DNA of 64,000 nt from Candidatus Fermentibacterota bacterium (GCA_963845085.1 CAWJQI010000004.1:512001-576000), one strand, 5' to 3'. Counted from the stretch's first letter, positions 9,909-15,953 are shown. Notes: a model not told the origin generated them from the sequence alone. Made by a program: numbers and translations.

Positions 9909-12900
9909 TCAGGGGGGCCCGGACGACCCGGAGTCGGAACGCGAAGAAGGGTCGCCCGAAGAACAGGGCACAGCCTCCCTCAGGGAGACAAGTTTCGCCT
10001 CGGTGTCCCAGTGGGGGTGGCGGCGCTGAAGCTCCTCGCCCTCCCTAAGGCACTCCCGCAGAACAGCAGGATCGCCTGAGGCGTTGTACAACTGCCGAAG
10101 GAGATCGAACCGCTCCAGTTCGTCAGTCGCGTCGGCAAGGGCGGCCTGCAGTACGGAAACGGCCTCCCTGCACTTTCCCCGGGCGGCAAGAAGCCTTCCG
10201 CAGCAGCAGGAGTAATACGCCCTGTAATCATCGGGGAACCCCCAGCGCCGGACCTGTTCTATCCCGGCCTCGGCCTCGTCGAGCCTGCCCATGTCCATGA
10301 GGACGTTGCTCATCTCAAGGGCGTAGTCCACGCGGTGCAGTCCGAGACCATGTTCCCTGCAGACCTCGAGCGCCTCTGCAAAAAGCGTGCAGGCCTCCAT
10401 GTGCCGCCCCACCCGGCCGTATGCGCTGGCAAGGTTTCCCAGGGCAATGGAAGCTGTATCGCCCCCGCCGTACTTCCTTGCAAGCTCAACGGCCTTTTCC
10501 AGAAGGCTGAAGGCCTCCGGGGAGGGGTCGTCCTTCTCCATGAGAGAACCGAGGTTGCCGGTGGCCTGAAGCTCGACAAGCCTGCTTCCCGTCAATCTGG
10601 CGAGTTCCATGTGCTCCCTGGTCAAGGCCATCGCATCCTTCATCCTGCCCGGAAGGTACTTGTAGGCCAGTGCCAGATTGCCGACACAAAGCGTTTCCAT
10701 GAGAAGGTTGCCCGTCTCCCTGGCGTAGCTTCGAAGCCTTTTCAGATTCCGCTCGGTGTCTTCAAGGCGGTCCCGCAGCCGCAGCATGCAGCCGCAGGCA
10801 TTGCCAAGCGCCTTGAAGGCAAGCAGTCTCTCTTCGGGAGAACCTGTTCTGAATTCCTCGTAGACGGCAAGCAGGTGGTCCCTGGCTTCGTCGTTCCTCC
10901 CCTCGAGCACAAGGATGCGGCCCCTCAGGTGAAGAACGTCAGGCCTGAGCCCGGGGCTCATCCCCTCAAGCCCGTCAAGGTGCTCCATAGCCTCCCGGGG
11001 CTTGCCCTCGTTTATGGCCAGGTTCGCACGCATCAGGCGGATCACCGCCCGCCGCCGCAGGTCGTCACCGGGCTCGAGTGATGCCCTTTCGATGCACTCC
11101 CGGGCCTTTTCGATGTCGCCGGAGGATGCATGCAGATCGTAGAGCAGCCTGTGGGCGGAAAGCCTGAGAAGAGGATCCGCAGAGAGCTCGAGCACCTTTT
11201 CCATCTGCACAAGACACGAGGCGTTCATTCTCCTTGAAAGCGAATGCTCCCCTGCCTTGATGTACCAGTCCGCAGCCTCCGGACCCTGGTCGGCCAGTTC
11301 CAGGTGGTGGGCGATCACAGCGTACTTCTCCGGTCTGCTTCCCCAAAGGCGCGCCATGCCATCGGCGGCCCTTGCGTGGAGTGGAACCCTTTCGCCATGG
11401 AGCTGAAGCCTGTAGGCGGCCTCCCTCAGAAGGATATGGACAAAGCTGCAGCTTCCGTCAGGTTCAAGCCTCCAGACCCTCTCCCTCACGCCCCTTTCGA
11501 TCAGCTCGTCGGCCTGCGCTGAATGGCAGAGAAAACCGAGTATCTCGCGGTCGAACTCCCTGCCAAGAATGCTGGCCGATAGCACAGACCTGCGAAGCTC
11601 CGGCTCAAGCCGGTCCAGACGGGCCACGAGAAGTGCATGAAGGCTTCCCGGAAAACTGTGCTCGTCCGGGGGGGATTCAGCTGACACAAGCATTCCCGCG
11701 TAGTGCTCCATGAAGAAAGGAATCCCTTCGGTACGCAGATGAAACCACTCCAGGAGGGCATCGGACGGCGCCTGCCCGAGGCTCCATTGGAGGAATGCGC
11801 GGCTTCCCTCCCGGGACAGCGGGGGAAGCTCCAGAATCTCAGGCTCGAGGCCGAGTGCGATGGCGGTGTTTGCCGAATCGGGTCTGGACAGCAGAAGCAC
11901 CGGCGGGCGGTTCTCATCCAACTCGCGGAGTACGGAAGCCAGCACCTTCCTTGAATCGGGGGAGATCCACTGCAGGTCGTCAACGGTGATAACGGTGCGC
12001 CCCAGAAGCGTGTGCCCCCTGATGAAGGCAGCGAGGGCTGCCACGGTGTTTGCAAACCTTCCCTGAGGATCGAGCACCTGATAAAGGGACTTTTCCCACC
12101 CGAGCCCGACGAGCGCCGCAAGGAATGACTCCGCCCTGAGAAGTTCGTCCGCCACCTGCATTGCGGATGGATCTTCAAGCTCCTCGAGACTGCTGATGAA
12201 CCCGTACAGCTTCTCCTTGAAGGCCGGAAGCCCCTCGCGACGGTCCCTGCCGCCCAGCCATTCGCCGAACCATGATGAGAATACATCGGAGCCGGAAACG
12301 GGAAGGCTCCGGCAGCGAAGGTTCATGAAGAACGTGTCGCTCAGGCGCTGTTGCAGCTCTTCCACCAGACGGGTCTTCCCCATGCCGGTGTCGCCGAGAA
12401 GAAGCATCGCCGCGCCAGGCTTCTCCAATGCATTTTCCATCCCGGCAAGGATGCCGTCCCTCTCGATAAGTGGAGGGGTCGAGCCGCGGCTTTCCCTTCT
12501 CTGCTTCCATGGTGAGAGCACCAGTGCGCTGACCACGCTCGAAAAACCCTTGAGCCGGAGCCCGAGTTCCCTTCTCACGCCCATGCGGGAGGAGCCGTTG
12601 AAAACAGGGTCTCCGTAAACGCTGTTCCAGCCGGCCGTGTCGTGCAGCCTCGCGGCAAGGTTCACGGAAGGGCCAAGGACTGTGTACGACTCGAGCATCG
12701 GCGTTCGTATCGTGCCGCTGAAGACCAGCCCGGTGGCTGCCCCGGCCCTTACCCTGCCGGATGCCGAGGCGAACACCCTTCCAAGGAATGCATCCGCCCG
12801 GCCCGGATCATCCTCGCGTGTGACCGGTGCGCCGAAGACAACAAGCATCCGCTGGCCCGAGCCTCCCGCCTGAAGACCGGATACGAAGCCGCCCATCTCT

Positions 12901-13544
12901 CCCGCCGCTGCGAGCACCAGTGACTGGAACTCCCGCGGGCACCATTGTCCGCCCCGGTTCTCCATCGACAGGAAAATGCTTGTCACCTGCCTGAACTCGT
13001 TGACTGCGCCGTCAAGGAAGAGCGTGGGCGGGAGGAACTCGGTACTTGGGATCGGGCCCGACACAATGGGGAACATTTCGGGCATGAAGGGGGCGGATGG
13101 GTTCGCCCCGTCTCCCGCCGCGAGGCTCAGGGCCGATCCCTGAAAGCTGTAGAATGTCCAGGAATCAAGAGGTATCACGTCCCAGACGACCTGTCCAACG
13201 CCGAGGGTCGTCTTCAACGGAAGCGCCGCACAAGGTGACCCGGTCTCTACAAGCAAGCGGGCTTTCGAGGCGTCTGCGCAACCACCGGGGAACACTATGG
13301 TCACTGCATCGCCCGCGAATGAGACGGGGTACCCGCCACTGAGGGAGCACAGGTCAACCACCCCGGACAGGGTTTCGCTCACTTCCCTCGCGAGCTGTTC
13401 CGCCCCCTCTACACCCAGCCCCGCCATCCCCTGAAATCTGTTGGTAAAACCGCAGATATCGGCGGTCAGGGCGGCGCCCGGAAAACTGCCGGTGAGCTCC
13501 CCTCGCGAAATCGCTTCACGGATGATTTCGGGTGCCTGCTTCAA
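9909..13544 (-). CDS. Class III nucleotide cyclase (two cyclase domains) plus STAND-type NTPase and TPR repeats
   Basis: C1 ADICGFT and FAGDA; C2 EFRQVT, VFGAP, YTVLGPSVNLAARL; Walker A GDTGMGKT, Walker B VDDLQW, EGIPFF, ARLDRL, FVHILLREAAY; helical repeats (LGNLA) at the C-terminus. Confidence 0.88.
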   Translation of the reverse strand: MKQAPEIIREAISRGELTGSFPGAALTADICGFTNRFQGMAGLGVEGAEQLAREVSETLSGVVDLCSLSGGYPVSFAGDAVTIVFPGGCADASKARLLVETGSPCAALPLKTTLGVGQVVWDVIPLDSWTFYSFQGSALSLAAGDGANPSAPFMPEMFPIVSGPIPSTEFLPPTLFLDGAVNEFRQVTSIFLSMENRGGQWCPREFQSLVLAAAGEMGGFVSGLQAGGSGQRMLVVFGAPVTREDDPGRADAFLGRVFASASGRVRAGAATGLVFSGTIRTPMLESYTVLGPSVNLAARLHDTAGWNSVYGDPVFNGSSRMGVRRELGLRLKGFSSVVSALVLSPWKQRRESRGSTPPLIERDGILAGMENALEKPGAAMLLLGDTGMGKTRLVEELQQRLSDTFFMNLRCRSLPVSGSDVFSSWFGEWLGGRDRREGLPAFKEKLYGFISSLEELEDPSAMQVADELLRAESFLAALVGLGWEKSLYQVLDPQGRFANTVAALAAFIRGHTLLGRTVITVDDLQWISPDSRKVLASVLRELDENRPPVLLLSRPDSANTAIALGLEPEILELPPLSREGSRAFLQWSLGQAPSDALLEWFHLRTEGIPFFMEHYAGMLVSAESPPDEHSFPGSLHALLVARLDRLEPELRRSVLSASILGREFDREILGFLCHSAQADELIERGVRERVWRLEPDGSCSFVHILLREAAYRLQLHGERVPLHARAADGMARLWGSRPEKYAVIAHHLELADQGPEAADWYIKAGEHSLSRRMNASCLVQMEKVLELSADPLLRLSAHRLLYDLHASSGDIEKARECIERASLEPGDDLRRRAVIRLMRANLAINEGKPREAMEHLDGLEGMSPGLRPDVLHLRGRILVLEGRNDEARDHLLAVYEEFRTGSPEERLLAFKALGNACGCMLRLRDRLEDTERNLKRLRSYARETGNLLMETLCVGNLALAYKYLPGRMKDAMALTREHMELARLTGSRLVELQATGNLGSLMEKDDPSPEAFSLLEKAVELARKYGGGDTASIALGNLASAYGRVGRHMEACTLFAEALEVCREHGLGLHRVDYALEMSNVLMDMGRLDEAEAGIEQVRRWGFPDDYRAYYSCCCGRLLAARGKCREAVSVLQAALADATDELERFDLLRQLYNASGDPAVLRECLREGEELQRRHPHWDTEAKLVSLREAVPCSSGDPSSRSDSGSSGPP

Positions 13545-13658: not shown

Positions 13659-15850
13659 CTACCTGGTCACCACCATCCGGGCGACGGAGGTGGAACCCTC
13701 ATGCGCAAGACGGGCGAAGTAGACACCCGGAGCGAGTGCTTCCGTGGAGAAGGACAGGGTGTGGCTGCCCTCGGAGAGAACCTGCTCCGCAACTTGTATA
13801 ACCAGCCTGCCCGCAATGTCGAACACCGAAAGACGGGTCATCCCCGTCGAGGGAATTTCGAAACTCACTGACGCCGCGCCACCGGAAACGGGATTCGGAT
13901 GTACCGCGAGCGAGAAACCGGACAGGGCCGCCGAGGAAGCGCCCTCGGTGCCCGTGCCGTAGTAGCTCCTCCATACCGAACCGGCGGGTGTGCCCGCATA
14001 AAGGTACAGGCTGGGCGAATCGAGAACGTTCGTGATGGATGCGGGGGTGGCGGAGATCTGGACAGGTGTGCCCGACCAGTTCTCCCACTTCCATGTGCCC
14101 TGTGCAGAAGTGCCCACCACAAGGCTCGCGCCATCGCTCGATACCGCGGCATCAACTGACGAGCCGAAGGCGGTCGTTACCCTGGTCCAGGTGGAGCCGC
14201 CGTTGGTCGATGAGTACAGGCCGGAAGAGGAGGCCGCGGCGAGGTGAGATCCGTTGTCAGGGTTCACAAGAAGCCTGAACGGCGTTCCCGACCATCCCGA
14301 TGCGGCAACGCTCTGCCAGGTGGCGCCGCCGTCTTCGGTGGAGTAGACCTTCCAGGCGCTGCTTTCGTACGCGATGACGAACACCCTGTCACTGTCGGTC
14401 GGATCGACCGCGATCGCCCTGGCGTACCGGTAGTCGGTACCCGAGGAGAGGATGTGGCGGGTCCATGATGCCCCGTTGTTGTCCGTCAGGGAGACCGTCA
14501 CCTCGTAGTTCGGAGCGGTGTACTTGTAGCCGGTGTACCAGTAGGTGCCGCCACCTCCGAAGACGAGGTCGTAACCGCTGCCATAGTAATTGTCGACCGT
14601 TGTCCAGACGGAACCTCCGTCTGTGCTCGCATAGAGCTCCACTCCGCCTCAACCACTTCCTTCAAGGCCCAGGATCACGTTCGAACCATCGGTTGCCAGC
14701 CGAACGAAATCACCGCAAGTGGACGGCCTGCTCATGAACTGCCAGCTGCCGGCGGCGCTGTCTTCCATCCTGTAAAGCCCCTGGCTCGCCATGTTCACCC
14801 AGATGTACCCGTTGCTGCGGGCCATCGAGATCACGTTGCCTATGACGAGCCCCGAGTTGCTGGCCGTCCAGGAGGCCCCGCCGGTGGTGCTGCGGAAAAA
14901 ACCTGCGGTTGTGCCGGTATAGGCCAGGGAGACGTCCTCATGGTCGGGCACTATCCACTTGCAGTTGGTTCCGGTTATCCCTGTTGACACCGTGCTCCAG
15001 GAAGCTCCCGCGTTCGTGCTTCGATACGTGTAGCCAAGGCCCGCTCCGAGGGCGAGGTTGTTGTCGACCGGGCTGAAAGTGAGCCCGTAGTTGTAATACT
15101 GGGTGATGCTCGTCCAGCTGGAGCCGCCGTTGGTGCTCCGGTAAAGGGCAAGGTAGGCCCCGGCGAGAATGATGGCGGGGTTGGCCGGGTGAAAGGCGAG
15201 CCCCTCAAAATAATAGTCGTCCGAAGCCCCAGCGGGAGTAACATCGGAAAATGTCGCCCCGCCGTCGGTCGAACTGAAGAGCTGGGCCACCGTCGTGGTC
15301 GTGGACTTGTATCCCCCGATCAGGATGCGGTCAGGCTCCGAGTGTGACACTGCGATGCTTCTGCCGTAGGAGTGCAGCCCGGCCTCACCAACGTAGGTGC
15401 CTGTCCAGTTGGCCCCTCCGTCGGTGCTCCTGAAAAAGGTCATTCTCCAGTAGCTTCCGTCGTACTTGTAACCGGCAGCGTAAACCGTGGCGCCGTTGGT
15501 GGGGTGAACCGCTCCGAGCATGAACACAGTGTTCGAGAACGATCCCGAAACCCAGGTGAGGCCGCCGTCTGAAGACCTCCAGATCCGGCTGCTGCCCAGG
15601 GCCACCAGTGTGCCGTCGGCGGTTATCACCATGTCGTTGGGAGTTGAGCCGGTAAATGTCGAGATGGCCTCCCATGACAGTCCCCTGTCCTGGGAGCGGA
15701 CCACCACGGTCGGGTTGTAGCCGCTCATCCCGTAAATGATGTCGGCGTCAAGCGGAGACTGTACGATGGCCTTGATCTCTCCCCCTCGGGACCGAGGCTT
15801 TCGAAGGGGCCGTAGCTTGCAAACACGAGCAGAATCAGTGGCAGAACCAT
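13659..15850 (-). CDS. Secreted BNR/Asp-box beta-propeller protein with T9SS/FlgD-type C-terminal domain, about 730 aa when joined; in-frame TGA at 14649-14651 (candidate Sec) and 1-nt frameshift near 15781-15785
   Basis: ATG 15850 with AAGGGAG gives MVLPLILLVFASYGPFESLGPEG; adding one G to the G5 run continues GEIKAIVQSP into the 15728 ORF; many S-x-D/N-G-G-x-x-W boxes; GGT TGA GGC GGA GTG joins the two ORFs in frame; C-terminus HPNPV...LSVFDIAGRLV...LAPGVYFARL. Confidence 0.8.
14605..14623 (-). promoter_or_regulatory. SECIS-like hairpin downstream of the in-frame UGA
   Basis: mRNA CAGACGGA-GGU-UCCGUCUG, perfect 8-bp stem, loop begins 33 nt after the UGA. Confidence 0.5.
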
Positions 15851-15953
15851 CTTTTCTCCCTTCGGAAACTTTTCTTCAAATCGATGTATACAATCCATTG
15901 AAGCAGGGGCGAAAACAAGTCCCTAAAATGGTGCTCGCAAAGCGGAAGAGGCC

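Follow-up and report, generated by a model that had tools for sequence, protein, structure and literature searches.

Relation to described selenoproteins and propeller proteins

Most of the bacterial selenoproteins described so far are enzymes of thioredoxin-like or metal-redox type that have Cys homologues, and the prototype of the bacterial genes with a SECIS element inside the open reading frame (ORF) is E. coli fdhF. In GH74 enzymes, we take the catalytic Asp to sit in the first blade of each propeller, a position mapped here by blade homology. To our knowledge, neither PorZ nor any other type-A cargo of the type IX secretion system (T9SS) contains selenocysteine (Sec). Deng and co-workers are said to have obtained in 2026 further candidate selenoproteins from 44,000 MAGs, which may include the propeller family described here.

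According to the available part of a 2026 compilation (PMC13188914), nearly all selenoproteins have a Cys homologue, and the 119 prokaryotic families of its Table 1 include no propeller, BNR or T9SS entry. No mention of these terms was found in the main text and part of the supplement of BSepDB, in the accessible portion of the deep-Sep supplements, or in the main text of SelCysML. There was also no selenoprotein model among the NCBIfam (June 2026) matches of the protein described below, and the literature covered (most subscription papers lay outside its scope) contained nothing related on bacterial propeller, BNR, T9SS, WOR-3 or Fermentibacter(ota) selenoproteins. The statement of the first-pass annotation that no BNR-propeller selenoprotein family had been described therefore holds for the parts of the catalogues checked.

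The locus lies on the minus strand of a stretch of 64,000 nucleotides of a Candidatus Fermentibacterota genome (the window, to whose first letter positions refer). Like bacterial in-ORF SECIS genes, it has an in-frame UGA, a small loop beginning with G 33 nt downstream, and SelABCD in the genome. It differs from them in its host fold, a BNR double propeller, in the absence of clear Cys homologues, and in a SECIS carved from the Asp-box of the repeat with an extra invariant 4-bp hairpin upstream. The decoding is of known type; what is new is the fold, the location and the fact that a Cys form is apparently missing. No catalogued Sec member exists for the propeller fold, and the family is apparently exported and apparently without a Cys form.

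Among propeller proteins, the GH74 xyloglucanases (PDB 5fkq, 6p2m, 2cn3 and 2ebs) share the two 7-bladed Asp-box propellers and provide the best PDB sequence matches as well as the best Foldseek match (TM 0.64, 16% identity; structural alignment over 568 residues with Z 28 and rmsd 4.8). In contrast to GH74, neither propeller of this protein has a conserved Asp in the b-c loop of its first blade: in blade 8, position 333 is occupied by D in 52, E in 30 and G in 23 of 128 members and by Ser in the host protein, and the blade-1 loop lacks a conserved acid. Conservation is centred instead on a Cys/Glu/Sec cluster of blade 9, and a T9SS-type tail is present. PorZ (PDB 5m11), a T9SS type-A cargo, resembles the protein in its two propellers and C-terminal domain (CTD) and ranked 32nd in Foldseek, although the PorZ model matched with E 0.002, far under its cut-off. 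The Omp28-related selenoprotein (NF045500, GOS_C) is a catalogued family with a thioredoxin fold and a UxxC motif, unrelated to the propeller. Finally, the multiheme selenoenzyme MccSep (bioRxiv 10.1101/2025.11.18.688581) is, in the available part of that preprint, a protein of an anaerobe with a site of sequence-distant Cys and Sec acting on polysulfide, and thus sets a precedent for the chemistry proposed below; unlike the propeller, which has no heme motif, it is a heme protein that contains its own path for electrons.

The locus and its reading frame

The two ORFs reported by the first-pass annotation (Table 1) are in one frame and split by a single TGA at 14651-14649 (-), in the codon context GGT TGA GGC GGA GTG (protein NVILGLEGSG-*-GGVELYASTDGG). 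Read-through of 15782-13662 (-) gives 707 residues without a further stop. Residue numbers refer to this mature read-through protein (P0001); those of the precursor are higher by 23. Contigs from four public runs were compared at the locus, none of which covers the entire gene. A near-identical contig of another public run spans 14595-15034 with two differing letters (14925 and 14932) and an identical TGA, which is therefore genuine and not an assembly error. Database homologues also stop at the UGA: all eight matches end in LEGSG, and a search for full-length homologues gave such halves only. The gene was recovered by a relaxed scan for recoded genes; the first scan, based on a coding score, missed it among the matches listed. 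The two annotated halves are almost certainly one gene encoding one selenoprotein, which is probably exported.

Table 1. Features of the predicted propeller selenoprotein gene (window positions; residue numbers of P0001)
Feature	Position (strand)	Basis or remark
Shine-Dalgarno-like AAGGGAG	15856..15862 (-)	5 nt upstream of ATG at 15850; direct sequence reading
Start and N-terminal signal peptide (MVLPLILLVFASYGPFESLGPE...)	15783..15850 (-)	Out of frame with propeller in this assembly; signal character judged by eye
One-base deficit beside G run	15785..15786 (-)	Comparison with contigs of other studies
Upstream ORF	14649-15728 (-)	Ends at internal TGA
First 7-bladed BNR/Asp-box beta-propeller	14868..15782 (-)	Residues 1-305; AlphaFold2 model, structural matches over 1-303/312
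Second 7-bladed propeller, with Sec blade (blade 9)	13953..14867 (-)	Residues 306-610; model and structural matches
Cys356 (TGC) of CG[DN][FI]C motif, putative Sec partner	14715..14717 (-)	127/128 UGA-bearing, 0/11 non-UGA
Glu374 of EGxG-U-G loop	14661..14663 (-)	127/128 UGA-bearing, 2/11 non-UGA
In-frame UGA, Sec378	14649..14651 (-)	Conservation across homologues; independent contig
Downstream ORF	13659-14642 (-)	Same frame as upstream ORF
4-bp helper hairpin GCUC-N5-GAGC	14625..14637 (-)	Between UGA and SECIS; paired in 38/38
bSECIS hairpin CAGACGGA-GGU-UCCGUCUG	14605..14623 (-)	Asp-box codons T-D-G-G-S-V-W of blade 9; loop 33 nt past UGA
T9SS type-A/FlgD-like C-terminal sorting domain	13668..13904 (-)	PF18962 30.9 bits (cut-off 27), TIGR04183 35.2 bits (cut-off 23); residues 627-705
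True stop TAG	13659..13661 (-)	

At the 5′ end, two other studies each supplied one contig of a near-identical strain (depth under 5) with an extra base behind 15785, and signal peptide and propeller share a frame in all six same-genus orthologues. The base missing at 15785/15786 is probably a long-read assembly error; a strain-specific lesion is the alternative. It had been proposed that the signal peptide is confined to the upstream half and the CTD to the downstream half of a protein of about 730 aa. The CTD part of this proposal stands (TIGR04183 at residues 627-705), but the ATG at 15850 is out of frame here, and the proposed length is obtained if the missing base is restored (23 + 707 aa), not in the assembly as it is.

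Downstream of the gene (window 9909-13544, minus strand) lies a gene for a 1211-aa protein with an AAA_16 ATPase domain and TPR repeats, the synteny being found mainly within the genus. Across 158 loci, no conserved partner gene was detected, and clustering of neighbourhoods reflected lineage-level synteny only.

Conservation of the UGA

In an order-level search, 39 of 61 genomes had matches, and 33 of the 47 genomes belonging to the order have a match with one TGA. Fifty loci were examined, 40 of which carry a single in-frame TGA at the Sec column; the remaining 10 lack it, the column being occupied by F, Y, G or a gap and, in L055 alone, by C. In a scan of GTDB, TGA was found in 77 of 78 loci (labelled Fermentibacteria/Hyd24-12, WOR-3, Stahlbacteria or unclassified), a set that overlaps the order-level one and was retrieved with a pattern favouring SECIS-coded residues. 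When the codon was left free in a metagenome search, 113 of 115 distinct loci among the matches listed had TGA, one had CTA and one GGA; the GGA locus (L221) keeps the Cys and the hairpin codons. An HMM search of 201 WOR-3 genomes returned 53 matches in 29 genomes, each with one TGA and with up to six per genome. In one WOR-3 genome with six copies, three Sec-bearing paralogues lie within 7 kb (G216:C4:7566-14110). The TGA is retained down to approximately 30% identity, a degree of conservation well in excess of chance, and neither TAA nor TAG was seen at the internal column in any locus set examined (order, GTDB, WOR-3 and metagenomes). As expected in the earlier annotation, homologues thus keep TGA, rather than Trp, Gly, Arg, TAA or TAG, within conserved coding flanks in all four sets. 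The family is large and multi-copy, occurs in uncultured anaerobic bacteria and does not appear in the available parts of the selenoprotein lists checked.

These data bear on a reading of the locus as two translationally coupled genes, a pseudogene or a sequencing error. The second lesion at 15785 and a GTG three codons past the TGA would fit such an origin here. However, the TGA recurs in an independent contig, the column never holds another stop, and the stop would cut a blade in half. Moreover, in 85 of the 128 non-redundant full-length members, the 25 codons past the UGA include no in-frame start, and a start at codon 3 occurs in just one. We consider this origin of the locus highly improbable, and for the family as a whole the two-gene or pseudogene reading is refuted.

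The SECIS hairpin and neighbouring RNA features

According to the available part of PMC13188914, the bSECIS model comprises a loop of 3-9 nt with a G among its first two positions, a stem of 4-16 bp, a spacing of 16-37 nt and an MFE of -7.5 or lower. The hairpin of the propeller gene, with a 3-nt GGU loop, 8 bp, a spacing of 33 nt and -11.5 kcal/mol, satisfies all of these constraints, and the energy limit (-7.5 kcal/mol or lower) is passed by 127 of 128 members. A GGU loop on an 8-bp stem is also found in selD of the host genome. A stem of 8 bp or more is present at the blade-9 Asp-box of all 38 UGA-bearing genes analyzed (L048, which is truncated, and L054, which was set aside, are left out), and no such stem was found when the ten remaining Asp-boxes of these genes were inspected (36-38 rows for each). 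Among the non-UGA paralogues, one of 10 (L040) has an 8-bp hairpin at the homologous box. Codon choice is correspondingly uniform: on average, the commonest synonymous codon makes up a share of 0.93 at the 9 degenerate columns here vs. 0.44 at 77 columns elsewhere.

All 456 stem cells across the 38 genes are paired; one change is two-sided and four are one-sided. As 22 of 500 shuffles reach this level, there is little covariation within Fermentibacteria; in the set of 127 members, a compensatory change from G-C to A-U occurred in three. The closing pair in this set is A-U (43), C-G (9) or U-A (1), or is open as C-U (60) or C-A (14), mostly so in WOR-3 members. Folds of the whole region of 62-100 nt after the UGA were no better than those of shuffles (z -0.16 to -0.79).

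Since the helper hairpin never varies (Table 1), covariation offers no support for it; its G is fixed at the third codon position under eight different amino acids. The GGT codon directly before the UGA (14652-14654, minus strand) is invariant in the 38 Fermentibacteria genes and is GGY in WOR-3. As the SECIS of this family illustrates, codons that specify a structural repeat motif can at once make up a recoding signal.

Sec machinery and decoding of the UGA

The presence of Sec machinery, on which the selenoprotein reading depends, was verified: the host genome contains selA, selB, selD and tRNA-Sec, all over curated cut-offs, and its selD itself contains a TGA. The selA gene occurs in all 47 genomes of the order and is patchy in WOR-3 (67 of 201 genomes). 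In the latter, the propeller family was found in 29 of the 67 selA-positive and in none of the 134 selA-negative genomes, counts derived from incomplete MAGs with at most 23 candidates scored per genome. As these genomes are incomplete and related, so that kin are not independent, no test statistic is given.

Alternatively, the UGA could be read as Trp, Gly or Cys, owing to a suppressor or to code reassignment, or could function mainly as a leaky stop with a regulatory role. This view could draw on the one locus with GGA and on the computational nature of the case for Se in the protein. It is opposed by several observations. UGA is the commonest true stop of the host genome, where it ends 175 of 278 long ORFs, which rules out genome-wide reassignment (codes 4/25). 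It also ends 27 of the 128 family genes (TAG 61, TAA 40). The sole tRNA with a UCA anticodon in the genome is tRNA-Sec, the family tracks selA, and the hairpin fits the bSECIS consensus. Such decoding is thus very unlikely. None of the computational tests able to refute Sec did so, and the original assignment of the UGA to Sec is borne out by the machinery, the conserved TGA, the constrained bSECIS and the confinement of the family to selA-positive genomes. With a high degree of confidence, though from sequence data, we conclude that Sec is inserted at this codon. SelB would bind the hairpin in the blade-9 Asp-box codons and thereby direct Sec to the UGA.

Protein architecture, conserved residues and predicted export

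BNR/Vps10 repeats run through the whole of P0001. An AlphaFold2 model (44 sequences, mean pLDDT 90.9, pTM 0.71, Cys standing in for Sec) comprises 14 blades in two propellers, followed by a linker and an Ig-like tail. In agreement with the initial proposal, the stop falls inside a blade of this model, blade 9, in the loop that joins strand b (370-374) to strand c (383-386). The precursor would thus be a chain of about 730 aa in which a signal peptide is followed by two 7-bladed propellers, arranged much as in GH74 enzymes, and by a T9SS-type tail.

Family-specific conservation is found only in blade 9 and the loop that follows it, apart from structural Gly, Trp, Ser and Pro and tail residues, which are common to the non-UGA copies too. 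Besides Cys356 and Glu374 (Table 1), the following residues distinguish UGA-bearing members from the 11 non-UGA copies: (i) U378, in 127 of 128 vs. none; (ii) C360, in 113 of 128 vs. three; and (iii) D402, in 112 of 128 vs. none, with Ser in the host genome's own protein. The Glu374 codon varies between GAA and GAG, which indicates constraint at the protein level. A conserved His was not found among the members, nor was a thioredoxin-like fold or a heme motif in the protein.

In propellers, the d-a and b-c loops lie on one (top) face. The model places Sec378 in a glycine-rich b-c loop and Cys356 in a d-a loop, both of blade 9; strands 359-364 and 370-374 would bring residue 356 opposite 378 if their register is 364:370.

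The host genome gave matches over cut-off for SprA_N and a PorV-like protein as well as 87 CTD matches; a search for GldN had no match, with the control equally silent. Export would probably proceed through a SprA/PorV-type system. The sorting tail lies beyond the UGA and is lacking in a product without read-through, so that only Se-loaded copies would be exported.

Copies without UGA and the apparently missing Cys form

Cys homologues at the Sec column, which the first-pass annotation had named as possible support, are essentially absent. Replacing the Sec codon by TGY (Cys) in the same search pattern gave no match, and Cys was found at this column in none of the 115 distinct metagenome loci among the matches listed. 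The sole Cys in the 50 order-level loci belongs to L055, a distant and doubtful paralogue with a shorter loop and without Cys356. In a profile search of 1.84 billion representatives, the best 150 matches lacked the Cys/EG motif; long repeat proteins swamped this result, and remote Cys forms may exist. The apparent lack of a Cys form makes the family invisible to searches for Cys/Sec pairs, and it makes the family a test case for what selenium can do that sulfur cannot.

Cys356 is gone from all 11 aligned non-UGA copies. On a tree of 88 rows (the query, 31 order members, 45 of 97 others drawn randomly, and the 11 non-UGA copies), these copies require six changes, and several are nested in UGA-bearing groups, mostly on long branches; the tree was built with a quick method, midpoint-rooted, and has long branches. 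Copies lacking the Cys-Sec pair persist as intact genes. From this co-loss and from the topology, Cys356 and Sec378 likely form one functional pair.

Two of the non-UGA copies are described individually. In L040 (G023:C167), whose sister L030 is encoded by the same genome, the UGA and Cys356 are gone; the 8-bp hairpin is retained, and a Cys immediately precedes the old Sec site. Its sequence suggests a recent loss of UGA that is still in progress. L059 (G000:C1:371700-376000), from the host genome, is an intact distant paralogue without UGA, Cys356 and hairpin.

Possible function of the Cys-Sec site

Taken as a whole, the observations are very probably best explained by one gene for an exported selenoprotein, in which a Cys-Sec redox pair is the most likely functional site. 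Fermentibacteria are described, in the available parts of two studies (PMC5030696, PMC5763382), as anaerobic fermenters of sulfur-rich habitats with secreted proteases and possibly sulfur or polysulfide reduction. The favoured role of Cys356 and Sec378, at about even odds, is that of a catalytic selenylsulfide/selenolate couple whose targets would be S-S or peroxide bonds outside the cell. In this chemistry, the propellers would hold a ligand with such a bond (a protein disulfide, a polysulfide or an oxidant), which the selenolate would attack; Cys356 would resolve the Sec378 adduct, and Glu374 may tune the reaction. No electron donor is evident for the protein; re-reduction might come from ambient sulfide or from co-encoded Omp28-like UxxC selenoproteins, both substrate and reductant being conjectural.

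A selenoprotein with a soft-metal site for Hg, Cu, Zn or Fe, serving scavenging, detoxification or metal catalysis, would use the same residues differently. Selenolate is a strong soft-metal ligand, and a single blade holds four conserved candidate ligands: C356, E374 and U378 each in 127 and D402 in 112 of 128 members. However, a conserved His is absent, D402 is replaced by Ser in the host protein, and metal-related neighbours are not conserved; we regard such a site as unlikely.

The pair might also act as a structural staple, with a selenylsulfide that stays closed in sulfidic, reducing sediment and shapes the binding loop of an adhesin or receptor. Se-S bonds have a lower redox potential than S-S bonds. 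A staple accounts for the loss of Sec together with Cys356 instead of a swap of Sec for Cys, and it is compatible with the intact state of the pair-less copies and with up to six paralogues per genome, as is often the case for binding proteins. The invariant Glu374 and the exposed, Gly-flanked loop nevertheless point to chemistry, and the other 13 blades do without a staple, so that a purely structural role seems rather improbable.

Returning to the redox selenoprotein, a more far-reaching version is offered tentatively and is itself doubtful as a whole: a surface propeller enzyme that is selenium-obligate (with no Cys version) would belong to an exported selenoproteome of Fermentibacteria and WOR-3, its sulfide-recharged Cys-Sec couple would open disulfides or polysulfide, and its export would be gated by selenium.

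The SG-U-G motif resembles the GCGEQ of complement. A 'covalent adhesin' with a thioester or selenoester at this motif was considered and dropped, as there is no Gln at +3.

Other candidates in the host genome

Four Omp28-like U-x-x-C proteins (the possible partners mentioned above) are encoded at G000:C4:51844 (+), C5:786648 (+), C5:499622 (-) and C4:684398 (-) (L293, L301, L300 and L296). They have signal peptides and SECIS-like hairpins; three weakly match NF045500, under its cut-off, and three have a TIGR04183 tail match.

A second, apparently uncatalogued family is represented by L294 (G000:C4:762314-763736, plus strand, two genes), L298 (C5:710719-712055, minus strand, two genes) and L297 (C5:144973-145620, plus strand). 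Its members have approximately 200 aa, a signal peptide, the motif P-x-C-x-x-U...(R/H)YQ (L297 has Ser in place of the Cys) and a hairpin of 8 bp with a GGU or GGC loop, and have no NCBIfam match. Matches were found in all 39 sampled genomes of the order, with up to eight per genome, often in tandem; most have one TGA, and a few copies have no stop. With at least two more apparently exported Sec families in the host genome, there may be an unrecognised selenium chemistry at the cell surface in sulfur-rich anoxic habitats.

Two oddities of the host genome were also noted. The 90-nt tRNA-Gly called by ARAGORN at G000:C5:968841-968930 has an ACC anticodon, which is unusual in bacteria, and is possibly a false call. 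At L295 (G000:C5:191406, minus strand), a beta-CASP metallo-beta-lactamase domain without an obvious ATG is closely preceded by a TGA that has a good hairpin of 8 bp; this TGA more likely represents an unusual start than Sec.
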